A DNA stretch of 64,000 nucleotides, taken from assembly GCF_053078305.1 (NCBI RefSeq), contig NZ_CP166879.1; one strand, given 5' to 3'. Position 1 is the stretch's first letter; each line of letters begins with the position of its first letter. Below the pieces are notes generated by a model. That model searched no databases and had not been told where the DNA came from. It was given only the letters and a program-made list of their open reading frames with translations. Below are positions 2,639-64,000 of the stretch, piece after piece. Position numbers and translations under genes: made by a program.

Positions 2639-3337
2639 TTAAACGCTTTCTAACTGTTCTGCTGTGATGCTACCCAGATGTTGCGTTTTTCCTGCCAGAT
2701 AGCGTGTTTTAAAGCGGGTAAAATGCTCGCCTAACCCTGCTGCCGCCCCGGTATCGCCGGCCATATCTAACAGTGCGATGGCTACCTCGGCAGTACAATA
2801 TTGGCCTTCAGCCTGGGCTTCACGCAGGCGATAGGCAGAAAGCCGGGAAAGATCGACGGAAATGACGGGAAGATTATCCAGATACGGACTTTTACGAAAC
2901 ATCTTGCGAGCTTCCGGCCAGGTACCATCGAGCATGATAAACAGCGGTGGCTTACCGGCAGGTGGTGTGAAGATCACTTCCCGTTGCTCATCAGCATACG
3001 AGGCGGGAAAGACCACCATTGGCTGATAATCCGGGTTTTGTACCAGATCCAGCAAATCCTGCGAGGGTTCGGTACGCGACCATTGAAACGCAACGGTATC
3101 AGGCAAAATATCAGCAATCAGACGCCCGGTATTACTGGGCTTCATTGGCTCGGTGTCGAACATCAGCAAACAGAAGCGACTTTTTGCTTCCGCTGGCGTG
3201 ATTGTTGAACAGAGACATAATTTCTCTGGCAAAAGACAGCGTTGGCAGCGACGAACGCGATTACCGCGGGCAAGAAAAGGACGTGTTGCGCGCGCAATAC
3301 GTTCGGCGCGTAACTGGAGAACAGCGTTTTCGGTCAT
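2639..3337 (-). CDS. yfiP: DTW-domain tRNA-uridine aminocarboxypropyltransferase (YfiP/TapT)
   Basis: ORF 2639..3388 contains MTENAVLQLRAERIA... and a DGTW motif; start chosen at internal Met to give 232 aa as in K-12. Confidence 0.8.
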   Translation of the reverse strand: MTENAVLQLRAERIARATRPFLARGNRVRRCQRCLLPEKLCLCSTITPAEAKSRFCLLMFDTEPMKPSNTGRLIADILPDTVAFQWSRTEPSQDLLDLVQNPDYQPMVVFPASYADEQREVIFTPPAGKPPLFIMLDGTWPEARKMFRKSPYLDNLPVISVDLSRLSAYRLREAQAEGQYCTAEVAIALLDMAGDTGAAAGLGEHFTRFKTRYLAGKTQHLGSITAEQLESV

Positions 3338-3405
3338 AAGAGAGCGTCGAAAAAACGCCATTGTCGCAGAGGAGAAAACGGGGCACAAGATGCGCCCCGG
3401 TAAGA

Positions 3406-3825
3406 TTAAAGAGATTCGTTCAACCAGCTGTCGAACGGCGCTTTCGGCACTGCGCCATTAAGCATGTCGACAACCTGACCGTTTTTGAAAATCATGATCG
3501 TCGGAATACTGCGAATACCAAAGCGGCTGCTTAATTCACGTTCAGCTTCGGTATTCACTTTCACAAAGCGCACTTTACCGCTACGCTCTTGCGCGACATC
3601 TTCAAAAATTGGTGCGAAATTACGGCAGGGGCCGCACCACGGTGCCCAGAAGTCGATCACCACTGGTAGATCATCTTTCAGCAATTTGTCGAGCGTTTCA
3701 CCGGTCGCATTAATCACCTCTCCGTCAAACAAGTCGTGACCGCAGCGTCCGCATTTTGCCGCATCTTCGATCCGATCGTCGGGAATGCGATTGATGGCCT
3801 GACAATGGGTACAAACGGTATTCAT
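3406..3825 (-). CDS. trxC: Thioredoxin 2
   Basis: 139 aa with N-terminal CxxC...CxxC zinc finger and WCGPC active site. Confidence 0.92.
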
Positions 3826-4031
3826 AACTAACCTCGGGATGAGTAAGGAGACTTATCGGCAACGACGCCGGTATGTTTCTAATATGTTACATATTATCGG
3901 GGACATTGTTCTAGACAACAATCTGTTTTATTCAATAGGTATGATAGTCGCAGGCTTTGGTACGAAATCATGGCGAACCGCGCGGACTTCGGGTAATCTG
4001 CGCGCTTCGCGCAGCGCTGGTGGAGAAAAGC

Positions 4032-5069
4032 ATGAACGATGAAATGAAAGGTAAAAGCGGCAAGGTCAAAGTGATGTATGTCCGCAGTGATGATGATTCT
4101 GATAAACGTACCCACAACCCGCGTACCGGGAAAGGGGGCGGGCGTCCAGGAAAATCTCGTGCTGACGGTGGCCGTCGCCCCGCCCGCGATGACAAACAGA
4201 GTCAGCCCCGTGACCGCAAGTGGGAAGAGTCGCCGTGGCGCACGGTTTCCCGCGCGCCGGGTGATGAGACGCCGGAAAAGGCCGATCACGGTGGTATCAG
4301 TGGTAAAAGTTTTATTGATCCGGAAGTGTTGCGTCGTCAGCGTGCGGAAGAAACCCGCGTCTACGGCGAAAATGCATGTCAGGCACTGTTCCAGAGCCGT
4401 CCGGAAGCGATTGTTCGCGCCTGGTTTATCCAGAGCGTAACGCCACGTTTTAAAGAAGCCTTGCGCTGGATGGCGGCAAACCGCAAAGCGTACCATGTGG
4501 TGGATGAAGCGGAATTGACAAAAGCGTCAGGCACGGAACATCACGGCGGCGTTTGCTTCCTGATCAAAAAGCGTAATGGCACAACCGTGCAGCAGTGGGT
4601 AAGCCAGGCAGGTGCGCAGGATTGCGTTCTGGCACTGGAAAACGAATCTAACCCGCATAACCTGGGTGGCATGATGCGCAGCTGCGCGCACTTCGGCGTG
4701 AAAGGCGTTGTGGTGCAGGATGCGGCACTGCTGGAGTCGGGTGCGGCTATCCGTACCGCAGAAGGCGGCGCAGAACACGTTCAGCCGATTACTGGCGACA
4801 ACATTGTTAACGTGCTGGATGATTTCCGTCAGGCGGGTTACACCGTAGTGACAACTTCCAGCGAGCAGGGTAAACCGCTGTTCAAAACCAGCCTGCCAGC
4901 GAAAATGGTACTGGTGCTGGGTCAGGAATATGAAGGGTTACCGGATGCCGCACGCGATCCGAACGATCTGCGCGTGAAGATTGACGGTACGGGCAACGTT
5001 GCCGGGCTGAATATCTCTGTTGCAACAGGCGTTTTGCTTGGTGAATGGTGGCGTCAGAATAAAGCCTGA
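4032..5069 (+). CDS. yfiF: SpoU/TrmH-family RNA methyltransferase YfiF
   Basis: ORF 3957..5069; internal start [17 protein letters not shown] gives 345 aa; basic N-terminal region then SpoU-type methylase domain. Confidence 0.8.
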
Positions 5070-5116
5070 TAAATCAGCCGGGTGGCAACTCTGCCATCCG
5101 GCATTTTCCCGCAAAT

Positions 5117-5806
5117 TTACTCACTCTCTGCCGGTAATACTGGCATCCAGTCAATCGGCGTCTCGCCATGTTGTTCCAGCCACTGATTTGCCAGCACAAA
5201 ATGGTTACAGCCAAAGAATCCACGATGCGCAGAAAGCGGTGACGGATGCGGTGCTTTCAGTACGTGATGGCGTTGCTTATCTATAATCGCCCCTTTCTTT
5301 TGCGCATGCGATCCCCACAACAAAAACACCACGCCTTCGCGATGCTGGTTAATCAGGCTGATTACTTTATCGGTGAAGGTTTCCCAGCCGAGGCTGGCGT
5401 GGGAATGCGCCTGACCTGCGCGTACCGTCAACACAGTATTGAGTAGCAGAACGCCCTGACGCGCCCAGCTTTCAAGATAACCATGATTAGGGCGGGTGAA
5501 GCCCGGAATAGTATTTTCCAGCTCTTTATACATATTCAGCAGTGACGGAGGAGTGGCGATTCCGGGGCGAACGGAAAATGCCAGCCCATGCGCCTGTCCC
5601 GGTCCGTGATAAGGATCCTGGCCGAGAATCACCACTTTAACGTCACCCAACTCGGTAAAGCGGAACGCGTTAAAGACATCTTTTTGTGGTGGATAGATAG
5701 TGACGCCGGACTGCCGCTCGCTGGCGACGGTCTGAAGGGTATTAAGAAAATAGGGTTGCTGCTTCTCTTCAGCCAGCACGTCATGCCAGGTTAATTCGTT
5801 AGCCAT
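5117..5806 (-). CDS. ung: Uracil-DNA glycosylase
   Basis: 229 aa, [11 protein letters not shown]..., [18 protein letters not shown] motif. Confidence 0.95.
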
Positions 5807-5935
5807 CTCGCTCTCCTGCGAATCTTCAATCCGCCTAGCTTAACTGCTTCTTTCTACAGAACAAAATCATGCTCATTTTTTAGACTTAAACGAGTGCAAA
5901 AAAATGTAAATTGGTAAAATTTCACACCCGCATAA

Positions 5936-6003
5936 GTTGATGTAAAACAATAAAATCCATTTGCGACCACAATCGATGTGTGGTTTTTGTTGATTTAAAT
6001 CAA
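5936..6003 (+). promoter_or_regulatory. grcA promoter region with two FNR-type sites (TTGAT-N4-ATCAA at 5990..6003; weaker TTGAT-N4-AACAA at 5936..5949)
   Basis: Exact match to the FNR consensus at 5990..6003 upstream of grcA; grcA is a known FNR-activated gene. Confidence 0.5.
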
Positions 6004-6110
6004 AGAATCAAGGGGGTTTGAGGAGTATATATACACTCAAGCAACAATGGTTTTACCAATTGGCCGCGACAGGCTGAACAAATCAAATAATTTTGCCGGG
6101 GAGGCATCAC

Positions 6111-6494
6111 ATGATTACAGGTATCCAGATTACTAAAGCCGCTAACGACGATCTGCTGAACTCTTTCTGGCTGCTGGACAGCGAAAAAGGCGAAGCACGT
6201 TGCATCGTTGCGAAAGCAGGTTTTGCAGAAGACGAAGTGGTTGCAGTAAGCAAACTGGGTGACATTGAGTACCGTGAAGTTCCAGTAGAAGTGAAACCAG
6301 AAGTTCGCGTTGAAGGTGGTCAGCACCTGAACGTTAACGTTCTGCGTCGTGAAACTCTGGAAGATGCAGTTAAGCATCCGGAAAAATATCCGCAGCTGAC
6401 CATCCGTGTATCCGGTTATGCAGTTCGCTTTAACTCTCTGACTCCGGAACAGCAGCGCGACGTTATCGCTCGTACCTTTACTGAAAGCCTGTAA
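6111..6494 (+). CDS. grcA: Autonomous glycyl radical cofactor GrcA (YfiD)
   Basis: [20 protein letters not shown]... 127 aa with C-terminal glycyl-radical motif RVSGYAV. Confidence 0.92.
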
Positions 6495-6516
6495 GGCTTA
6501 AGTAGCAAGTTACTAA

Positions 6517-6547
6517 GCGGAAGAGGGCGACCTCTTCCGCTTTTTTT
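6517..6547 (+). terminator. Rho-independent terminator after grcA
   Basis: Hairpin gcggaagagg-gcga-cctcttccgc followed by a run of seven T. Confidence 0.7.
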
Positions 6548-6549
6548 CA

Positions 6550-7137
6550 TTAATAGAAAATGCGTACCGCGCAATAGATCAGTAGCAGCGCCAGCACGAT
6601 ATTTAACTGGCGACCATACTGGCGAAACAATCGCTGAAACAGATGCCCCGCCAGCGCCCAGCACACATTACCAAACGTCCCAATCATTGCCAGCAAAACG
6701 CTGACGCCAACTACCCAGCTTAACGCCTGTGTTTGCGGCAGAACAAATGTCGACAGTGCCGTAACACCGTACAAAATGATTTTGACGTTCACAAACTGCA
6801 AAGCAAAGCTGGCCCAAAAACTGATTGGTTTTGTCTGAAGCCCGTCTTCCTTTGTTGGACTGGTAGCGATTTTCCACGCCAGCCAGACAATATATGCCGC
6901 CCCCGCCCAACTCAACAGATGCACAGCTGCCGGGTCGATAACAGCCAGTGAAAACGAAATGCCCGCACACAGCAACATGACGATTAAAAATCCCAGACTC
7001 ATCCCTGCCAGCACGCGGGTACTCTGATGAAATCCGTGCGTTGTGGCTGAGCTAAGGGCGAGAATATTGTTCGGTCCTGGCGTCATGGCGGTAATCAGGG
7101 TGTAAGTCCAAAAAGCACTTAAAAGGGTCGGTGTCAC
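6550..7137 (-). CDS. eamB: Cysteine/O-acetylserine exporter EamB (YfiK), LysE/RhtB family
   Basis: 195 aa multi-pass membrane protein MTPTLLSAFWTYTLITAMTPGPNN... typical RhtB-family N-terminus. Confidence 0.85.
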   Translation of the reverse strand: MTPTLLSAFWTYTLITAMTPGPNNILALSSATTHGFHQSTRVLAGMSLGFLIVMLLCAGISFSLAVIDPAAVHLLSWAGAAYIVWLAWKIATSPTKEDGLQTKPISFWASFALQFVNVKIILYGVTALSTFVLPQTQALSWVVGVSVLLAMIGTFGNVCWALAGHLFQRLFRQYGRQLNIVLALLLIYCAVRIFY

Positions 7138-54886: not shown

Positions 54887-55951
54887 ATGTCACAGAACTG
54901 GATGAGACATTTCGAGCTGCAGCTTGTGGACGGGAACGGTCAGGGAATTGAGCTAAGTGATTTCAAAGTCACCTTTACGATCGACTGGTTCAACATCAGC
55001 AGCGCGTCCCGGGTAGGGACTATCAAAATTTATAACCTCTCGGCAGATACTGTGAACCGAATTACCGGGCAGGAGTTTTCGAAAGTGCGTCTGATTGCCG
55101 GTTACGACGGTATCGCGCCGGAGGTGTCAGCAAGCGACGTAGGGACCGTGCGGGGAGTTGACGCGGCGGACGTGGGCCAGAGAGATGGCCGCAACTACGG
55201 ACTGATTTTCAGCGGTGAAATTCGCTACTCGGTCACAGGAAAAGACAGTCCGGTTGATACCTACGTCCTGATTCAGGCAGCAGATACTGATCTGGCTTTT
55301 GCCACCAGTATAACCTCACAGACGCTGGCTGCCGGTTACACGGTCGCTGATGTGAACCGTGCGCTGATGAAAGACTTCGAAGCCAAAGGCGCGACCGAAG
55401 GCCTGACGCCTGAAATGCCTGCTACTGTATTCCCCCGGGGGCGGGTACTCTTTGGCATGACGCGGCATCTAATGGATAACGTAGCCGGACAATGTGGCGC
55501 AACATGGCAATTCGTGGACGGTCAGCGCCAGATGGTGGCGAATAACGAATATGTTCACGAAGCGATTGTGCTCAACAGCGCTACCGGGCTTATTGGCATG
55601 CCGCAGCAGACTATCGGTAACGGCGTAAACGTCCGCGCGCTTATTAATCCGAACATCCGGGTTAACGGGCTCATTCAGCTGGATCAGGCTTCCGTCTATC
55701 GTACCGCGTTGTCGAACAACGATATTGCGATGGCTGGTGGTCAGATCACCGACCAGAACACGGACGGAAATATCACGCTCAGCGGCACCACATCGCAGCC
55801 TGCCTGCATCGCAACGGATGGCGTTTATATTGTGCGCGGGATTATGTACACTGGCGACACAAGGGGCCAGGCGTGGTACATGGATATGATGTGTGAAGCG
55901 CGTGGCGCGGCGGATCTTGTTTCCTCATCAGCGAGGGAAAGAGGGCTTTAA
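54887..55951 (+). CDS. Putative baseplate hub / Mu P-like tail protein
   Basis: 354 aa; module position upstream of spike and wedge genes. Confidence 0.5.
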   Translation: MSQNWMRHFELQLVDGNGQGIELSDFKVTFTIDWFNISSASRVGTIKIYNLSADTVNRITGQEFSKVRLIAGYDGIAPEVSASDVGTVRGVDAADVGQRDGRNYGLIFSGEIRYSVTGKDSPVDTYVLIQAADTDLAFATSITSQTLAAGYTVADVNRALMKDFEAKGATEGLTPEMPATVFPRGRVLFGMTRHLMDNVAGQCGATWQFVDGQRQMVANNEYVHEAIVLNSATGLIGMPQQTIGNGVNVRALINPNIRVNGLIQLDQASVYRTALSNNDIAMAGGQITDQNTDGNITLSGTTSQPACIATDGVYIVRGIMYTGDTRGQAWYMDMMCEARGAADLVSSSARERGL

Positions 55952-56286
55952 TGAAACGGTTATGTTTGGCGTTAGTTATGATGGTTACTGCTCCGGCGAT
56001 GGCTGCAATTCAGTGCGGCAACTACACGATGACCGGTGACGGAATGACTGTTATTAACGGTGAAACTGTCACATCACAGAAGATAAAATTTCTGGGAAAA
56101 GATGGTGACTATTCAAACATGAAAATGGACATGGGCCTGATGCCTTCCCGTGATGGTAACAATTACGGCTTTGAGTTTGTGAAACGTAACGGAAAAGCTT
56201 TCCTGAACGTCCAGCTGCTGCAGAACAGCATGGACGCGCCGAAAATCATTGGATCTTTCCCGTGTAAAAAAGTGAGCAGCAAGTGA
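55951..56286 (+). CDS. Secreted small protein of unknown function (cargo inside baseplate operon)
   Basis: 111 aa with cleavable signal peptide MKRLCLALVMMVTAPAMA; start overlaps upstream stop (TAATGA). Confidence 0.45.
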   Translation: MKRLCLALVMMVTAPAMAAIQCGNYTMTGDGMTVINGETVTSQKIKFLGKDGDYSNMKMDMGLMPSRDGNNYGFEFVKRNGKAFLNVQLLQNSMDAPKIIGSFPCKKVSSK

Positions 56287-56795
56287 CAGTTGATGATGAT
56301 CCTTTGAATTCATTTCAAGACCCTGACTTTCAGGAACTTCTCGGCGGAATTGATATTACTCTTGTTATAAGGTTTTTTAATTATTTTTCGCGTTTCGAAT
56401 ATGCGTTAAAAAGAATTAATTTCAAAAAAACTGATCGTAGAAATTATCTAATCGGTGCTGACTGGAGCCGCTACGCTACTGATGATACGCGGCCTTTATA
56501 TCCTACTGGAAATAGAAATGTCGATAGGGCAGTTGAGTATCTATGTCAGCAACCTGTGAAGCAGCAGAGGCATGATTTTTCGTGGGAGGATAAACCTCCA
56601 ATCGAACCTCATTCTCTTGCTGAAGCATTAAAGCAGATCCCGTATATAAGAAATAATCTCTTTCACGGCGGGAAGTATTTACGTCCCGACCCCGTTCGTG
56701 ATGAAAAGTTATTGAAATACTCTATTTATTTGATGCAGTTGTGTTTGATAACTGATAATCAGCTTTCTGAATACTTTAATACTATCCACCGATAG
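56283..56795 (+). CDS. AT-rich protein of unknown function (cargo inside baseplate operon)
   Basis: 170 aa; markedly AT-rich versus flanking baseplate genes; followed by a hairpin plus T-run. Confidence 0.45.
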   Translation: MTVDDDPLNSFQDPDFQELLGGIDITLVIRFFNYFSRFEYALKRINFKKTDRRNYLIGADWSRYATDDTRPLYPTGNRNVDRAVEYLCQQPVKQQRHDFSWEDKPPIEPHSLAEALKQIPYIRNNLFHGGKYLRPDPVRDEKLLKYSIYLMQLCLITDNQLSEYFNTIHR

Positions 56796-57608: not shown

Positions 57609-57961
57609 TGCGATACAGACGTGAAGACGCCGATGGCGATTACACCTTTGGCAGCGGTGATGACACCTGGCTGATTAACTCACCGGAGGCCGTGGCGCAG
57701 GCGGTAAAAACGCGATTCGAATTGTGGTATGGGCAATGGTTTCTCGACACCACCGAGGGGACTCCGTGGATCCAGTCCGTACTCGGTAAGCAGAAGCCGG
57801 AAACCTACAACCTGGCGATCCGTAAGCGCATCCTCGAAACGCGGGGCGTTAAATCAATCCTCTCTTTCAATACGACGGTGGATACCACGACCCGACGTGT
57901 CATGTTTTCCGCTGAAATCGACACTCTTTATGGAATAACGACTGTTACATCGGAGGCGTAA
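57608..57961 (+). CDS. Baseplate wedge protein (gp25/W-like)
   Basis: 117 aa, precedes baseplate J. Confidence 0.5.
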   Translation: MRYRREDADGDYTFGSGDDTWLINSPEAVAQAVKTRFELWYGQWFLDTTEGTPWIQSVLGKQKPETYNLAIRKRILETRGVKSILSFNTTVDTTTRRVMFSAEIDTLYGITTVTSEA

Positions 57962-59160
57962 TGGCTCTGAACCTTGATTCTCTCGGTTTATCTGCAAAGG
58001 TAACCGCGGAGGGGATCAGTGCGCCTGATTATCAGACGATACTCAGCACCCTGATTAGCTATTTTCAGCAGATTTATGGCAGTGATGCCTACCTCGAACC
58101 GGACAGCAAAGACGGCCAGATGGTGGCTCTGATGGCGCTGGCGATTCATGATGCCAATAATATGGCGATAACTGTCTACAACTGTTTTTCACCGGCAACC
58201 GGCTATGGGGCTGCACTGACCAGTAACGTGAAAATAAATGGTATTTCACGTAAAGGCGCGACGAACTCTACGGTTGATTTGCTTCTTACAGGAACTGCCG
58301 GAACAACCATCATTAATGGCAGCGTGAAAGACAGTAATAATGTGATATGGCGTTTGCCTGCTTCAGTAGTGGTCGGCGTGGATGGTACAGTGATGGCGAC
58401 CGCAACATGTTCCGTCAGTGGTGCAGTGGCGGCGCTGGCTGGAACTATCACTGAAATTAATACGCCAACCCGTGGCTGGGTTTCGGTAACTAATCCTGCT
58501 GCGGCTACTGTGGGCACTCTGGCAGAAACTGACGCGGAGTTACGTATCCGTCAGTCGCAAAGTGTTGCGTTGCCATCAATAACCCCATTTGAAGCACTGG
58601 ATGGTGCTGTTTCTAATGTTACCGGTGTAACCCGCCACAAACTCTATGAAAACGATACTGGTTCGGAGGACGGTAACGGGTTACCGCCACACTCTGTTGC
58701 TGTAATTGTGGATGGCGGTGATGTGACGGATATTGCTCAGGCTATCAGAGGGAATAAAGGCCAGGGGACAGCCACTCACGGTACAACATCCGTTACGGTT
58801 CCGGATAAATACGGCAATCCCCATGTAATCAAATTCTCGCGTTCCAGTGATGTGCCTGTTTATGCCCGGATTAAATTAAAAGTTTTTACGGGTTATACCT
58901 CACAGATAGGGCAGCAGATCCAGCAGGCTATTTCCGACTATATCAATAGTTTGACGATTGGTGATTCGGTCCTTTTAAGTCGCATTTACTCACCGGCGAA
59001 TCTTGGCGTGGTGAGTGGCGGGAATGCACGCTATTACGATATTCAGGAACTGACGATTGGGAAATCCCCGGGGGCTTTGTCGTCATCAAACATTGATATC
59101 AGATACAACGAATCTGCGTCCTGTACCCCGGAAAATATCGTTATAACGGTGGAGTCATGA
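57961..59160 (+). CDS. Baseplate J-like protein
   Basis: 399 aa; size and position typical of baseplate J. Confidence 0.6.
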   Translation: MALNLDSLGLSAKVTAEGISAPDYQTILSTLISYFQQIYGSDAYLEPDSKDGQMVALMALAIHDANNMAITVYNCFSPATGYGAALTSNVKINGISRKGATNSTVDLLLTGTAGTTIINGSVKDSNNVIWRLPASVVVGVDGTVMATATCSVSGAVAALAGTITEINTPTRGWVSVTNPAAATVGTLAETDAELRIRQSQSVALPSITPFEALDGAVSNVTGVTRHKLYENDTGSEDGNGLPPHSVAVIVDGGDVTDIAQAIRGNKGQGTATHGTTSVTVPDKYGNPHVIKFSRSSDVPVYARIKLKVFTGYTSQIGQQIQQAISDYINSLTIGDSVLLSRIYSPANLGVVSGGNARYYDIQELTIGKSPGALSSSNIDIRYNESASCTPENIVITVES

Positions 59161-59837
59161 GCAAATACACCGAACTAATCACGAACTACCACGCCACCAA
59201 ACCTAAATTTCTTGCGCATGTTGATCTGATGACCCGGCCGCTTATTGATGTTGCGGCTGCCACCAGAGGGCTGATTACTGCATTTGATATTGACTCTGCG
59301 GTTGGTGTGCAACTTGACATTCTGGGATTGTGGATCGGACGTAGCCGTGTTGTCAGCCAGCCTATCTCAGGTGTCTATTTCAGCTGGGATACCGACGGGC
59401 TTGGATATGATCAGGGGGTATGGCAGGGACCATACGATCCTGATTCCGGATACATGTACCTCAGCGATGAAACTTATCGTGTCATTCTTAAAGCGAAGAT
59501 TGCGATTAATAACTGGGATGGACGGAATGATTCGCTTCCGGCAATTCTTGACGCTGCAACAGCAGGATCCGGGCTGCGAATGCAGATAGTCGATAACCAG
59601 GACATGACGATATCGGTCTGGGTCTTTCCTGATACTGATATTTCAGATGTATCGCGTGAGTTAATTGCGGCAATTAAACAGGGGTATCTCACAGTAAAAG
59701 CCGCCGGGGTATGGGCGGGTGGCATTGAAACACCTTCGGTGGAAACCCCATCGGAAGGCTCAAAATTTTTTGGTTTTGATATGGATAACGAATTCATCAG
59801 TGGTTTTGATGTAGGAGCATGGGGAGTATTACTCTGA
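59157..59837 (+). CDS. Baseplate wedge/tail fibre attachment protein (Mu gp48 / P2 I-like)
   Basis: 226 aa following baseplate J. Confidence 0.5.
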   Translation: MSKYTELITNYHATKPKFLAHVDLMTRPLIDVAAATRGLITAFDIDSAVGVQLDILGLWIGRSRVVSQPISGVYFSWDTDGLGYDQGVWQGPYDPDSGYMYLSDETYRVILKAKIAINNWDGRNDSLPAILDAATAGSGLRMQIVDNQDMTISVWVFPDTDISDVSRELIAAIKQGYLTVKAAGVWAGGIETPSVETPSEGSKFFGFDMDNEFISGFDVGAWGVLL

Positions 59838-60292
59838 TGGCGAAAAATGACTTTAAAGCGTTTGCAACGGATCGAAATGCCAATGTTATATCGCAGGAGG
59901 AATGGGAAGCGTTGCCCGCGCTTTTATCCGGATTTACAGCAGGGAAAGCCTCCAGTGCGCAAGTCAATAAGGTTATTCGGCAGGTCAGCTTTATTGCTGC
60001 AGCTCTGGCCCAGTTTGTAAGTGATAAAACGCAACGGGATGTGCTTGATAATGGTGATCTGCCCGGTTTTGTTGAATTGCTGGGATCGGGGTTTGCTGTT
60101 GAATACCTGAGCCGCAAGAATCCGTTTGGTGATATCAAATCGGATGGCACGGTGAAAACGGCTCTCGAAAACCTTGGTTTGGGAGAAGAGCACAGCGTTA
60201 AGCCGGGTTGTTTCTGCCTGCGTCAGCTTCCGCCCGGCCTGCAATTTCAGCTGAATCAGACTAATGGAAGCCATAGCCGCATCAATCAGTGA
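59819..60292 (+). CDS. Tail fibre, constant N-terminal part; truncated in the present orientation of the invertible segment
   Basis: ORF crosses the left recombination site at 60174 (…ALENLGLGE) and then reads antisense to tfa for about 40 codons to a stop. Confidence 0.55.
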   Translation: MGSITLMAKNDFKAFATDRNANVISQEEWEALPALLSGFTAGKASSAQVNKVIRQVSFIAAALAQFVSDKTQRDVLDNGDLPGFVELLGSGFAVEYLSRKNPFGDIKSDGTVKTALENLGLGEEHSVKPGCFCLRQLPPGLQFQLNQTNGSHSRINQ

Positions 60293-60715
60293 CTGGCGCC
60301 GTACTTCTGCCGCGTCTACTGCGGCGTTATGCTGTGCCTCAGTGTCGGTCACCCATTTCTCACCATCCCATTTATCGTATGACGTTAACGGGGCGATAGT
60401 GGTTGTATTTTCAGGGTAATCACCCGGAACTGTGATTTCTTTTGATTCTCCTGTTTCGGTGCTATAGACGATTTCACCGCGATGGTCTGGCACATATTCC
60501 CATGAGTTAAAATCTGCAGAACGGCAAATTGCATAACCAGCTTTATATGAGCCAGGAGCATCTAAACAGGAACATGCCGGGATACCGACACCCACAGCAA
60601 GATATTCAGTTGATGTGGAAATATATTCCCGTGTTTCACCATCATAATTATAAACGGTAATGTCTCCGGCCTTTGTGGCGATGAGTTCATTATTTAATAC
60701 AGCTTTACTTATCAT
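59924..60715 (-). CDS. Tail fibre assembly protein (Tfa/U-like); ORF currently reads through the left recombination site
   Basis: N-terminal 180 aa inside the segment resemble Tfa proteins (…SWEYVPDHRGEIVYSTETGESKEITVPGDYPENTTTIAPLTSYDKWDGEKWV…); last 83 codons lie outside the segment, antisense to the fibre gene. Confidence 0.6.
   Translation of the reverse strand: MISKAVLNNELIATKAGDITVYNYDGETREYISTSTEYLAVGVGIPACSCLDAPGSYKAGYAICRSADFNSWEYVPDHRGEIVYSTETGESKEITVPGDYPENTTTIAPLTSYDKWDGEKWVTDTEAQHNAAVDAAEVRRQSLIDAAMASISLIQLKLQAGRKLTQAETTRLNAVLFSQTKVFESRFHRAIRFDITKRILAAQVFNSKPRSQQFNKTGQITIIKHIPLRFITYKLGQSCSNKADLPNNLIDLRTGGFPCCKSG
60162..60187. repeat. Left recombination site of invertible segment (gix/hix-like, 26 bp)
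   Basis: ctctcgaaaacc-tt-ggtttgggagaa: two 12-bp quasi-palindromic half-sites around a 2-bp core, inverted copy at 61171..61196. Confidence 0.65.
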
Positions 60716-61184
60716 GCAGCCCTCACAATATAATTAAAGGCGATGTTACGGGAGCGGGTTTCAGATGCTGTGCGAACTGAGCGAGATGCGTCGAATGTCC
60801 AGTTATAAGCGCCATAACCCTCAATAATTTCGGCTTCCTTTAGACCTGTAGATAATACTTGCCCATGTTGACTAAATGGCCCTGAACTAAGTACGTCTCT
60901 AAAAAGCTGGGTACGCCCAAAAGAACCAACAATATTCTGAATTGCATCATTCTGTGCAGATAATAAGTTACGACCAGAGTCAATCCCGCGCCCATCATCC
61001 CAGCCACGAATAAATTCACCGCGTAAATCTGGTAATTTTAATGTTGGGTAAGCCTTTGCCAGATTTGGGTACTTTTCAGAAGAAAATACTGCTCCGTTAC
61101 ATTTTAGCCACCCCATTGGCGGAGTGGCTGAAGGCCACGGAACAGGCACACCAACCGGTAATGCAGAGCCTTCTCCCAAACCAA
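60174..61184. other. Invertible DNA segment (about 1 kb) carrying one tail-fibre C-terminus plus tfa cassette
   Basis: Flanked by inverted 26-bp sites (21 of 24 positions identical); invertase gene immediately adjacent. Confidence 0.65.
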
Positions 61185-61224
61185 CGTTTATGAAAATGCA
61201 GAAATAACGAGCAAATGGCATCAT
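60712..61224 (-). CDS. Tail fibre variable C-terminal cassette (tail-collar-like domain), silent in current orientation
   Basis: Open frame begins within the right recombination site (…NVGLGEGSALP…); GWLKCNGAVFSSEKYPNLAKAYPTLKLPDLRGEFIRGWDDGRGIDSGRNLLSAQNDAIQN resembles the phage tail collar domain. Confidence 0.6.
   Translation of the reverse strand: MMPFARYFCIFINVGLGEGSALPVGVPVPWPSATPPMGWLKCNGAVFSSEKYPNLAKAYPTLKLPDLRGEFIRGWDDGRGIDSGRNLLSAQNDAIQNIVGSFGRTQLFRDVLSSGPFSQHGQVLSTGLKEAEIIEGYGAYNWTFDASRSVRTASETRSRNIAFNYIVRAA
61171..61196. repeat. Right recombination site of invertible segment
   Basis: ttctcccaaacc-aa-cgtttatgaaaa, inverted copy of the left site. Confidence 0.65.
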
Positions 61225-61250
61225 TCCTGCTTTTGTCAGGGAGATCTACC

Positions 61251-61805
61251 ATGCTTATTGGCTATGTACGCGTATCAACAAATGACCAGAATACCGATCT
61301 ACAACGTAATGCGTTGAACTGTGCAGGATGCGAGCTGATTTTTGAAGACAAGATAAGCGGTACAAAGTCCGAAAGGCCGGGACTGAAAAAACTGCTCAGG
61401 ACATTATCGGCAGGTGACACTCTGGTTGTCTGGAAGCTGGATCGGCTGGGGCGTAGTATGCGGCATCTGGTCATTCTGGTTGAGGAGTTGCGCGAACGTG
61501 GCGTTAATTTTCGCAGCCTGACGGATGCTATTGATACCAGCACACCGATGGGGCGTTTTTTCTTTCATGTGATGGGGGCCCTGGCTGAAATGGAACGAGA
61601 ACTGATTGTTGAACGAACAAAAGCTGGACTGGAAGCTGCTCGCGCACAGGGACGAATTGGTGGACGTCGTCCCAAACTTACACCAGAACAATGGGCGCAG
61701 GCCGGGCGACTAATTGCATCAGGAGTTCCTCGCCAGAAGGTGGCGATCATTTATGATGTTGGCGTATCGACTTTGTATAAGAAGTTTCCGGTCGGAGATA
61801 AATGA
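61251..61805 (+). CDS. pin: Serine DNA invertase (Pin/Gin/Hin family)
   Basis: MLIGYVRVSTNDQNTDLQRNAL... with catalytic Ser and C-terminal HTH; closely resembles e14 Pin as recalled; ATG at 61251 after aggga. Confidence 0.88.
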   Translation: MLIGYVRVSTNDQNTDLQRNALNCAGCELIFEDKISGTKSERPGLKKLLRTLSAGDTLVVWKLDRLGRSMRHLVILVEELRERGVNFRSLTDAIDTSTPMGRFFFHVMGALAEMERELIVERTKAGLEAARAQGRIGGRRPKLTPEQWAQAGRLIASGVPRQKVAIIYDVGVSTLYKKFPVGDK

Positions 61806-61885
61806 AACCGTAGCACGTCGTATGCAAGAACGTGCCACGGCTGGCTGATAAGCTTGTAAAAATATTGAACAGGGAGTGGAGCATT

Positions 61886-62533
61886 CTATGAAGCTAATTT
61901 GTTTAATTTCATTTGTAGTGACTTTACTTCTTGGTCGATAATGTCGAATCCCTTATTGACAGCATCTCTTAGCTCTGCATCAATATTTTTTATCCCTTGA
62001 GCATAATCTACCATTATATTTATTTTTGCATCATGTAATCTCTTATACATGGTTTTATTTTTGTTATTGTCTGCCATGCCAATAAGGATTTTTTCATAAT
62101 CCTCAATGAGTTTGTTGTTTCCTTTAAATGATTGTATTAATGAGCGTGAATATGTGTATATGTTAATTATTGAGTCTCTAGCAGAATCATTTAGTTTTGC
62201 AATGACATTCGCATTTTGCTCATAGAATGTGAAATTATCATCCCCTACAGGGAATGTGAGAATCAACATTTGTCCCGGTTTTATATTATCAATGTGTGTT
62301 TTCATCCTTTTATTATATAAATTGATTAGGGTGAAAACTTCTCCCTTAACTCCTTTTAATACTGAAAGTTGTAATTCAAGGGATTCTCTTTCTGTCTCTA
62401 CTTTAGACAGCTTAGCTTGTTGGGTAACTCCTTTTAGGGTAAACCATCCGCCAATAAGAGTACCAACTAGAGCTGTGAGGGAGGAGGATAACCATCCAGG
62501 TATGCTATTTAAAAGATTACTAAATTCACTCAT
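61886..62533 (-). CDS. Membrane-anchored protein of unknown function (cargo at prophage right end)
   Basis: 215 aa; N-terminal TM helix (WLSSSLTALVGTLIGGWFTL), predicted coiled coil, N/K-rich soluble domain; AT-rich. Confidence 0.45.
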   Translation of the reverse strand: MSEFSNLLNSIPGWLSSSLTALVGTLIGGWFTLKGVTQQAKLSKVETERESLELQLSVLKGVKGEVFTLINLYNKRMKTHIDNIKPGQMLILTFPVGDDNFTFYEQNANVIAKLNDSARDSIINIYTYSRSLIQSFKGNNKLIEDYEKILIGMADNNKNKTMYKRLHDAKINIMVDYAQGIKNIDAELRDAVNKGFDIIDQEVKSLQMKLNKLAS

Positions 62534-62593
62534 TATAAGTACTCGCTAATATTGAACGATATATATATATCAAATTATTATAAAACTCGTCAG

Positions 62594-62935
62594 CTACTGG
62601 AGAAGGCTACCTGAACTTCGATCTATTCCTGCATCCATATAGTTGATGGTCTTCTGGAGCTCTTCGATTAGGGCAACAGCTTTTGCTCGAGAAATGCATA
62701 TTAGTTGATCCGGAAATTCTTGTAAGGGCCAGTTTGGTATACAGGCCATGTTATCAATGAAGGATGCAGACAAGTAAACTTCATTGGTAACCAGAGAATA
62801 GCTTACCTCAAAATTGGTGAGTTCCGGCAAACTGCTAACGTTTGACTCTTTTCTGCGCATAATATTATCCATGACTGTAATTATGTACAGGTGATGGTCT
62901 TCAATTTCGAAGAGGGAGTCAAGGGGGAGTCTCAA
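62594..62935 (-). CDS. Protein of unknown function (cargo, upstream partner)
   Basis: 113 aa, AT-rich, same strand as and 60 bp upstream of the 215-aa gene. Confidence 0.45.
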   Translation of the reverse strand: MRLPLDSLFEIEDHHLYIITVMDNIMRRKESNVSSLPELTNFEVSYSLVTNEVYLSASFIDNMACIPNWPLQEFPDQLICISRAKAVALIEELQKTINYMDAGIDRSSGSLLQ

Positions 62936-63062
62936 ATGAACCGTTATAGAAAAAGGGGGGGGATCTTTGTGTTGCTGAACTTATGCAAAATTTTTTTGCA
63001 CCATAAATCCAACAACACATTCAATAACACATTGCTGTATCACTATGAAAATAAATGTGTTT

Positions 63063-63119
63063 TTATTTGATTTCACACATATCACAATTGATGCATTTTT
63101 TAGTGATTAACAGCGCCAT
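63063..63119 (-). pseudogene. yfhL: Remnant of original yfhL 5' end (19 codons) at attR
   Basis: Minus-strand ATG at 63119 encodes [18 protein letters not shown] then stop; first 16 residues match YfhL N-terminus; diverges at the att core. Confidence 0.6.
63072..63089. repeat. attR core (18-bp direct repeat)
   Basis: ttcacacatatcacaatt identical to 22676..22693. Confidence 0.6.
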
Positions 63120-63174
63120 AAGGAAACTCTCAAAACAACACAAACCGGGCGGGCATTATACGCGCATTCTTTAC

Positions 63175-64000
63175 TCAGACCAGTTTTTTCACCAGCGCTT
63201 CACTATGACGAATACGTTCTGGTGCCAGTTCCAGATCCTGCTGAATCAGCGCAATGAACAGCAAATCCGTTAACATTCCCTGCGCGTGACAAGCAGAGAT
63301 TGAAGCACTGTTTGTCGCTTGTTCTTCGGCAATGGTATACAGGCAATGAGAAGCACGCTGTTGCAGGGCATTGGGAGTAAAGCCGGTAATCGCCAGCACT
63401 TTTCCGCCCACTCGCAGCATCTCATCTGCCGCCAGGTTTAACTCGCGTCGTACACCGGTGTAAGAAATGGCTAATAACAGATCGTCAGGGGACGACGCCT
63501 GTACGGTAGCGAGTAGCGCATGCATATCGCGCACTGCGGCAGCATTGAAGCCAATCTTCATCAGCTTCCAGGCAAAGTTTTGCGCCACCAGACCCGAAGC
63601 GCCAATACCGGTCAGAATTATCCGCCGCGCAGAGCGCAACATTGTTACGCATTCATGCAGTTTCTCTTCACTATTAACGTTTAGCGTTGCGTACATAGCG
63701 GCAGTATTTTCTTTAATCAGTTTTTCGCCGACCAGCCGTAACGGATCATCACCGCGGATTTGGTTATGAATGGGCACGGAGGGCGATTCCGGCTGGCTTG
63801 CCAGCGCTTCACTCAACGCCAACTTAAGCGCCGGAAAACCTTTATAGCCGAGTTTTTGCGCGAACTTCACGACGCTGGACTGACTGACTCCGGCTTCGTT
63901 GGCCAGTTGCTGAGAGCTTAAATGGCGCGCCGTATCAGGTTGTAGCAGCAGATAATCCGCCAGTTTTTTATCACTCTGGGCAAGCCCCTGGTAACGCTGA
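63175..64000 (-). CDS. yfhH: RpiR/MurR-family transcriptional regulator (YfhH-like); 5' end runs off window
   Basis: HTH region …LSSQQLANEAGVSQSSVVKFAQKLGYKGFPALKLALSEAL… followed by SIS domain; reading frame still open at window end. Confidence 0.8.
   Translation of the reverse strand, partial: QRYQGLAQSDKKLADYLLLQPDTARHLSSQQLANEAGVSQSSVVKFAQKLGYKGFPALKLALSEALASQPESPSVPIHNQIRGDDPLRLVGEKLIKENTAAMYATLNVNSEEKLHECVTMLRSARRIILTGIGASGLVAQNFAWKLMKIGFNAAAVRDMHALLATVQASSPDDLLLAISYTGVRRELNLAADEMLRVGGKVLAITGFTPNALQQRASHCLYTIAEEQATNSASISACHAQGMLTDLLFIALIQQDLELAPERIRHSEALVKKLV

Follow-up and report, generated by a model that had tools for sequence, protein, structure and literature searches.

Beside a Pin-family invertase gene lies a short segment bounded by inverted sites and holding a single tail-fibre cassette, and the question that this locus raises is whether it is a one-cassette switch in its own right or what is left of a larger one. 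The window analysed here is a stretch of 64,000 nucleotides of contig NZ_CP166879.1 (assembly GCF_053078305.1), in which the locus is part of a full-length prophage of ~40 kb adjoining yfhH. The locus is an e14-type P segment, that is, the Pin-invertase tail-fibre host-range switch known from Escherichia coli myovirus-like prophages, and represents a decaying allele of this known system and not a novel type of switch. Taken as a whole, it is probably best explained as an e14-type switch that recently lost one cassette and the 3' end of a chaperone gene through a 936-bp deletion. The usual order in such a locus would be the constant fibre N-terminus, a site, Sv-tfa (forward) and tfaE-Sv' (reverse), the second site and pin. 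The features present here are listed in Table 1, in which L001 and L011 denote related loci.

Table 1. Positions of features at the P-segment locus (window coordinates).
Feature	Position	Strand	Evidence
Baseplate wedge gene (DUF2612 / Phage_Wedge1)	59157..59837	+	ORF; 681 bp as in annotated homologues; PHROG 587 match
Fibre gene, truncated state	59837..60292	+	ORF; PHROG 11303 / 1396 tail fibre profiles match residues 1-122
Left 26-bp crossover site (gix/pix-like)	60162..60187		Core TT at 60174-60175
Deletion junction, 936 bp missing vs L001 and L011	60188..60189		blastn break points
tfaE tail-fibre assembly chaperone, native codons 1-175 only	60189..60715	-	Open frame runs on to 59924
Remaining fibre C-terminal cassette Sv' (Phage Tail Collar domain)	60712..61224	-	PF07484, E = 9e-15
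Right 26-bp crossover site	61171..61196		Core at 61183-61184
pin, serine DNA invertase, 184 aa	61251..61805	+	PHROG 125, Gin structure 3uj3, K-12 PinE

The initial annotation proposed a Pin-family invertase adjoining the segment and drew a comparison with the e14 P segment, and both are borne out. Pin shares 176 of its 184 residues with K-12 PinE (96% identity), matches the PHROG 125 DNA invertase profile (4e-97) and, across residues 1-181, gives an end-to-end alignment with the Gin structure 3uj3 (E = 1e-93; unrounded, 1.3e-93). The nucleophile of the catalytic domain, Ser9, is present in the N-terminus MLIGYVRVSTNDQ, and the C-terminal helix-turn-helix (residues 142-182) matches the Hin DNA-binding domain 1hcr (E = 1e-6). 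A homologue of Pin is annotated with PF00239 and PF02796, and HTH_7 occurs at the equivalent position in the 184-aa pin products of related loci. By analogy with the invertase family, a recombinational enhancer is expected within the 5' part of pin; window positions 61151-61450, which take in the first 200 bp of the gene, are 96% identical to e14 DNA, and a scan for the enhancer with the degenerate Fis motif gave one match and is uninformative. A promoter scan of the pin-stfE spacer for leftward transcription yielded no convincing candidate, and the 215-aa ORF 3' of pin had no match in Pfam, PHROGs, NCBIfam or PADLOC.

The inverted 26-bp gix/hix-like sites that had been claimed to bound a segment of ~1 kb are present where they were placed and are identical to those of e14. 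The left site reads CTCTCGAAAACC-TT-GGTTTGGGAGAA; the right site reads TTCTCCCAAACC AA CGTTTATGAAAA, with the reverse complement TTTTCATAAACG-TT-GGTTTGGGAGAA, such that the two are inverted, have the TT core in common and carry identical inner half-sites. The underlying 20-nt inverted repeat (60169-60188 and 61170-61189) is 95% complementary, with 981 nt between its arms. Scanning all 64 kb with the site motif gave three matches, one of which is the left site matching itself on the opposite strand, against 0.16 expected, and all fall at the two sites. Both sites equal, base for base, the corresponding sites in the e14 P segment of K-12 and in seven other loci. The left site contains the e14 crossover repeat TTGGTTTGGGAGAAG, as the repeat is given in PMC12529663, and experiments have demonstrated that the e14 segment inverts at TTGGTTTGGGAGAAGG (PMC12529663).

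The fibre gene follows directly on the baseplate wedge gene, the stop codon of which overlaps the fibre ATG at 59837. From this ATG, the start used in relatives, the fibre has 151 codons; an in-frame upstream ATG at 59819 extends it to 157. The claim that the fibre in the present orientation is truncated, stopping after 157 codons because it passes through the left site into antisense tfa, is correct and corresponds to the ORF at 59819-60292. Its constant N-terminal part (59837-60188) ends in ...ENLGLGE and is followed by 35 foreign codons from antisense tfaE. The window carries a single collar-domain cassette and a single tfa, both on the minus strand as originally described. The cassette, Sv', is the positional equivalent of e14 stfE, and its leader MMPFARYFCIFINVGLGE begins outside the segment, adjoining pin. 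When inversion was simulated at the TT cores, the constant part came to lie in frame with the cassette, as the initial annotation had predicted, giving a product of 275 aa (269 aa from the ATG at 59837). Exactly this 269-aa fusion is encoded on JPQG01000003.1 (L019) of the draft assembly GCA_000736735.1. The chimeric ORF left beside pin by inversion, at the StfE2 position, would be a 51-aa nonsense peptide. Homology to StfE2 was considered for the corresponding chimeric ORF of the undeleted relative and dropped, the likeness to K-12 StfE2 being limited to a 17-residue leader.

Every relative examined has two cassettes. The exact 169-aa Sv' product occurs on 20 public contigs, and among the matches listed all ten of ten contigs with it have two cassettes and a TfaE of 200/201 aa. 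Two loci, DX6 and 00_3230, were considered as further deletions and rejected, since their second cassette is merely different and shorter. Of the two junction types, Sc-Sv', predicted for the inverted state, occurs in 561 E. coli genomes, and Sv'-pin, as present here, in 924. GCA_000736735.1 contains the two-cassette locus twice, in opposite orientations (L011 on JPQG01000017.1 and L019), which at the level of sequence documents inversion of the undeleted parent segment in a near-identical strain.

Comparison with related prophages for a second cassette identified a gp53-like cassette that is deleted here relative to both L001 and L011. By blastn, window positions 59001-60188 correspond to L001 positions 2902-4089 and window positions 60189-61849 to L001 positions 5026-6686. 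L011 is 100% identical over window positions 57648-60188 and has no mismatches and two homopolymer-length gaps over 60189-64000, with the 936 bp present. Lost with the 936 bp were the gp53-like variable cassette and the tfa gene that belongs to it, along with the final 26 codons of tfaE. The fibre is truncated at present because the deletion took the cassette occupying the expressed position. A 111-bp query across the junction found no place with at least 80% query coverage in 5,426 complete E. coli genomes, and an exact search for the junction 29-mer had no match in GTDB representative genomes, JGI metagenomes or IMG/VR; exact-product look-ups with the 263-, 224-, 157- and 151-aa ORFs returned none on record. 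Judged from these comparisons, the deletion is private to the present genome, and very recent because a two-cassette sequence exists with no mismatch in either flank.

The same deletion damages the chaperone. The product of tfaE has 156 of 175 residues in common with K-12 TfaE, aligns with profile positions 7-179 of 239 of PHROG 105 and covers model positions 1-106 of 131 of the Pfam family Caudo_TAP; a PDB sequence search with full-length TfaE as query gave no match. The initial annotation expected inversion to give tfa a proper stop, which proved wrong: tfaE has lost its native last 26 codons, and the chaperone is without its conserved C-terminus in both orientations. In the present orientation its frame reads through the left site to give 263 aa, and after simulated inversion it runs on into the 5' end of pin, adding 49 foreign codons for a total of 224 aa. 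The two Tfa proteins of L001 resemble each other only across their C-terminal ~80 residues, the stretch to which the lost motif LDY(I/L)DA..D.S.APD..WP..P belongs. A passage in PMC9608196, citing North et al. 2019, describes the conserved C-terminal domain of Tfa as mediating trimerisation and fibre assembly. We infer that the truncated TfaE is non-functional; it might nevertheless remain active, or be replaced by a paralogue from another part of the genome, of which 64 kb are in view. Because in both states the chaperone ends in a nonsense tail instead of its conserved C-terminal motif, fibre assembly is probably defective unless TfaE is supplied in trans by another prophage.

The end points of the deletion are odd. 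It starts one base past the left 26-bp site, at the exact inner edge of the inverted repeat, and ends within tfaE codon 175. A deletion by Pin, recombining the left site with a pseudo-site in tfaE, is rejected: the junction lies 13 nt from the crossover core, the inner half-site shows no flaw, and in the parent the sequence to the left of the right end point (GTCAATGTAATCC) is unlike a half-site. The window contains no third crossover site. Microhomology-mediated deletion was likewise rejected, since the end points have no bases in common against L001 or L011; with an e14-like Sv start (GGAGCA), one extra G would be expected. The two convergent tfa genes, through their LDYLDA motifs, form a weak central inverted repeat; the right end point falls 3 nt inside one of its arms, but this suggests no mechanism, and the repeat was discarded as a cause. 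To our knowledge, no known mechanism accounts for these end points, which leave some room for an artefact.

Compared with the e14 P segment and PinE, the locus has the same 26-bp sites, gene order and junction peptide ...ENLGLGE, a Pin that is 96% identical, and a homologous TfaE and StfE-type collar cassette. In contrast, e14 carries stfP-tfaP and tfaE-stfE in a segment of 1797 bp, whereas tfaE-Sv' alone remains in ~1.0 kb here, with tfaE truncated at its 3' end. The e14 element is moreover a remnant at icd, unlike the full-length prophage at yfhH, and has mcrA after pin where the 215-aa ORF lies here. In e14, fibre chimeras have a reported host-level anti-phage role that depended on a gp53-like variable part (PMC12529663). 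The cassette lost here is of the same gp53-like type as in those chimeras. The Mu G segment with Gin and the P1 C segment with Cin belong to the same serine invertase family and likewise combine a constant N-terminus with alternative C-termini and their own chaperones. They have two complete Sv-U pairs and two host ranges, whereas one pair with a damaged chaperone remains here and there is therefore no host-range alternation.

The H segment of Salmonella, inverted by Hin, is ~1 kb long, has 26-bp sites with a 2-bp core and gives an ON/OFF rather than an A/B outcome. Segment length, site architecture and outcome are thus as in the present locus, but Hin flips a promoter in a maintained, selected switch, whereas here ON/OFF is a by-product of a deletion in a system that shuffles coding sequence. 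In K-12, pinR (Rac) and pinQ (Qin) belong to decayed tail-fibre inversion modules, with a single fibre/tfa set by the pin gene. We know of no recognisable cognate invertible segment at either, whereas the present locus keeps both sites, correctly inverted. PinQ is described in PMC12529663.

With two intact, correctly inverted sites and an intact pin alongside, the remaining segment of ~1.0 kb probably still inverts. Pin, together with host Fis and an enhancer inside pin, would flip it by exchange at the TT cores. As currently oriented, the prophage would encode only the 151-aa fibre stump; flipped, it would encode the complete 269-aa collar-domain fibre. Toggling would then be between a truncated fibre and a full fibre with a damaged chaperone. 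That such flipping acts as real phase-variable ON/OFF control of the fibre in an otherwise intact prophage, with the ON state rescued by the TfaE of another prophage, seems to us very unlikely.

Other accounts of the locus differ in what they make of the gap and of the inversion. The 936-bp gap could be an assembly or consensus artefact, or a sequenced subclone, from a culture with the P segment in both orientations. Among public assemblies, the closest, from an essentially identical strain, does have the full segment in both orientations, indicating a mixed population, and mis-assembly of invertible segments has happened elsewhere: three 1.9-kb 'plasmids' in PLSDB consist solely of a P segment. 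The junction, without microhomology, exactly at the edge of the inverted repeat and unique across all searched collections, also fits an artefact. However, the joined sequences have no repeat or k-mer in common that could drive a mis-join, reads of the opposite orientation have no similarity that would place antisense tfaE directly after the left site, and both flanks are otherwise perfect, and we regard an artefact as improbable. The deletion may instead be real and inversion lost, for example through a silent pin or unfavourable geometry, so that the fibre gene would be dead and fixed in its truncated form. Flipping brings the prophage no obvious gain, because the chaperone is damaged in both states, and orphan invertases beside stf/tfa genes are found in the K-12 cryptic prophages Rac and Qin. 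Such a frozen state is nevertheless unlikely: the sites and pin are intact and equal or nearly equal to the active e14 versions, the undeleted parent segment exists in both orientations in a near-identical strain, a segment of ~1 kb is a normal substrate for the invertase family, and other Pin paralogues are able to act in trans (PMC12529663).

The initial annotation had left open whether the locus is an ON/OFF fibre switch or a shufflon half of which was deleted. The second reading is supported, given the two cassettes of the relatives and the mismatch-free flanks of L011; ON/OFF behaviour would be a mechanical by-product, as the junction is found nowhere else in the searched collections and the chaperone is truncated in both orientations. 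A single-cassette ON/OFF phase switch that is genuine and under selection, for the fibre or for a fibre-derived surface or defence protein, could be argued from what the locus has kept (both sites, the invertase and a fusion that stays in frame), and a host-level role in defence against phage T2 is reported for inversion of the e14 fibre cassettes (PMC12529663). Yet this allele is confined to the present genome and very young, a two-cassette counterpart with mismatch-free flanks exists, and the junction is in no other genome or metagenome searched. The ON state would moreover be without an intact chaperone because the deletion cuts into tfaE, and the ORF at the StfE2 position would be nonsense after inversion; we consider a selected switch extremely unlikely. 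The e14-type switch shortened by a recent deletion thus stays the preferred reading.

For annotation, the locus is a warning in two respects: the 157-aa 'fibre' and 263-aa 'tfa' are artefacts, produced by read-through as a result of the deletion, and public records contain mis-assembled invertible segments. If ON/OFF control of the fibre were true after all, one deletion would have turned a host-range A/B switch into a presence/absence switch, and an end point at the edge of a recombinase-bound site would hint at an undescribed, site-associated deletion mechanism. The value of the locus is otherwise modest, that of a dated snapshot of switch degeneration, in which a near-identical strain keeps the whole segment in both orientations, whereas here the cassette that was expressed is gone, as is part of the second chaperone, and both sites and the invertase remain.

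The locus is a real feature of a known system, an e14-type P (invertible) segment with a Pin invertase, and its single-cassette form derives from a fresh deletion rather than representing a separate switch design. The anatomy described in the initial annotation is all present, with inverted sites, a truncated fibre ORF, a minus-strand tail-fibre assembly chaperone gene (tfa) and collar cassette, and an invertase gene. The 184-aa product is a Pin/Gin-type serine invertase that matches the Gin structure 3uj3 over residues 1–181 (E = 1.3e-93), carries Ser9 within MLIGYVRVSTNDQ, matches the Hin DNA-binding domain with its C-terminus and PHROG 125 'DNA invertase', and has 176/184 residues in common with PinE of the K-12 e14 element. 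The minus-strand cassette contains a Phage Tail Collar domain (PF07484, E = 9e-15) and also matches tail-fibre PHROGs, while the tfa match spans only profile positions 7–179 of 239 in PHROG 105 and 1–106 of 131 in Pfam Caudo_TAP. For the fibre, 59837 is the start used in relatives.

Features of the invertible locus
Feature	Position	Strand	Placement	Length or sequence
Fibre ORF	59819 or 59837 to stop 60292		crosses left site	157 or 151 codons
Left 26-bp site	60162–60187			CTCTCGAAAACC-TT-GGTTTGGGAGAA
tfa	start 60715	minus	within segment	
Sv' cassette ORF	60712–61224	minus	within segment	169/170 aa
Right 26-bp site	61171–61196			in reverse complement TTTTCATAAACG-TT-GGTTTGGGAGAA
pin	61251–61805		right of segment	184 aa

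A 20-nt inverted repeat (60169–60188 and 61170–61189) has arms that are 95% complementary and lie 981 nt apart, and the two 26-bp sites share a TT core and identical inner half-sites. Within the 64-kb window the site motif is unique to these two sites (3 matches against 0.16 expected, one being the left site scoring on its own opposite strand). Base for base, both sites match those of e14 and seven other related loci, and they contain the repeat TTGGTTTGGGAGAAG, at which P-segment inversion has been demonstrated by experiment in e14 (Kirigo et al. 2025, PMC12529663).

All relatives examined (E. coli CD45, OkiPb01695, TL20, DX6, 00_3230, phage pro483, isolate L3_CS7_E2980 and e14) carry two convergent cassettes, ordered as the constant fibre part Sc, a site, the gp53-like variable cassette Sv and tfa in forward orientation, then tfaE and the collar-domain cassette Sv' in reverse, the second site and pin. 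In the CD45 alignment, window 59001–60188 corresponds to 2902–4089 and 60189–61849 to 5026–6686; because these blocks leave a gap, 936 bp are missing from the window: the gp53-like variable part together with its tfa gene, and 79 bp from the end of tfaE. Twenty public contigs encode the exact 169-aa Sv' product, and two cassettes with a 200/201-aa TfaE were found in 10/10 of the places listed. One of the 20, JPQG01000017.1 (GCA_000736735.1), is 100% identical to window 57648–60188 and has zero mismatches and only two homopolymer-length differences across 60189–64000, but it carries the 936 bp. The 'half-deleted' alternative offered by the initial annotation is thereby borne out against both CD45 and this contig and, judging from such mismatch-free flanks around the retained 936 bp, the deletion is private and very recent. 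The sole differences outside it, T runs at 62023 (T5 versus T4) and 62991 (T7 versus T8), are such as sequencing error in one or the other assembly typically produces. No place covering at least 80% of a 111-bp junction query was found in 5,426 complete E. coli genomes, the junction 29-mer is missing from GTDB representative genomes, JGI metagenomes and IMG/VR, and look-ups of the four aberrant ORF products gave no record.

The left deletion end (60188|60189) is the first base past the inverted repeat and one base beyond the 26-bp site, which a random end within Sv would reach roughly 1 time in 440. In the parent, the conserved C-terminal motifs of the two convergent tfa genes form a weak central inverted repeat, and the right end falls 3 nt within one of its arms. 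A Pin crossover cannot yield such a junction and is ruled out as its source; no microhomology was found at the junction, and no mechanism for the end points. Less probably, the deletion is an artefact or of subclone origin; we found no repeat able to cause mis-assembly, which argues against an artefact.

Inversion of the undeleted segment is visible in GCA_000736735.1, which carries the equivalent of window 57648–64000 twice with identical flanks, one P-segment orientation on a 1.42-Mb contig and the other on a 17.7-kb contig. JPQG01000003.1 shares both flanks with JPQG01000017.1, has the 1.96-kb segment inverted and encodes a 269-aa fusion protein exactly as predicted for the flipped state. 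As one locus was assembled in both orientations, the culture was a mixture. The predicted Sc–Sv' junction occurs in 561 E. coli genomes and the present Sv'–pin junction in 924, and TL20 has a natural flipped arrangement, a 269-aa fibre followed by a 200-aa TfaE. For the invertase family a segment of ~1 kb is a normal substrate, the Hin H segment being one example. The deleted allele probably still inverts, given its intact sites and pin, its family-typical ~1-kb size and its e14-like DNA (96% identity over window 61151–61450, including the first 200 bp of pin). Direct identification of a recombinational enhancer in the window was unsuccessful. Three 1.92-kb circular PLSDB 'plasmids' from cat E. 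coli (CP148528.1, NZ_CP148540.1 and NZ_CP148539.1) hold the P segment only (Sv, tfa, tfaE and Sv') and match window 60189–61172; mis-assembly of an invertible segment is their most likely origin, and excised circles a less likely one.

The host element is a ~40-kb myovirus-like prophage between the lepA–lepB side of the chromosome and yfhH. A 215-aa ORF between pin and yfhH (61886–62533, minus strand) has no match in Pfam, PHROGs, NCBIfam or PADLOC, and is frameshifted at a homopolymer in JPQG01000017.1. The corresponding slot holds mcrA in e14, a GIY-YIG LEM-3-like gene in DX6 and a 445-aa hypothetical in TL20, which points to variable cargo or defence genes at this place downstream of pin. 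An insertion separating the tail genes from the spike gene contains two small plus-strand ORFs (111 and 170 aa; 55951–56795), neither with a PADLOC match; the related TL20 prophage has a HEPN-domain gene just upstream of the spike gene.

Simulated exchange at the TT cores joins the constant part (...ENLGLGE) in frame with the collar cassette, as the initial annotation had anticipated; the product has 269 aa when read from the ATG at 59837 and 275 aa when read from 59819. Its further expectation, that inversion would give tfa a proper stop, does not hold: the relatives' native C-terminus, DYIDAVTATDISTAPDVIWPELPEA, is absent, and tfa reads through to 263 aa at present and, after inversion, would run across 49 foreign codons and into the beginning of pin (224 aa). 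The chimeric ORF beside pin, placed as is e14 StfE2 (reported to block adsorption of T2; PMC12529663), would then encode a 51-aa nonsense peptide. In its present state the prophage encodes no more than a stump of the fibre, in which the constant part is followed by 35 nonsense residues; in the flipped state it would encode a complete fibre with a TfaE lacking the conserved C-terminal motif. Between the two Tfa proteins of CD45, similarity is confined to the C-terminal ~80 residues, which include this motif, and PMC9608196, citing North et al. 2019, describes the conserved C-terminal domain of Tfa as mediating trimerisation and fibre assembly. Without a paralogous TfaE acting in trans, the ON state would probably be defective.
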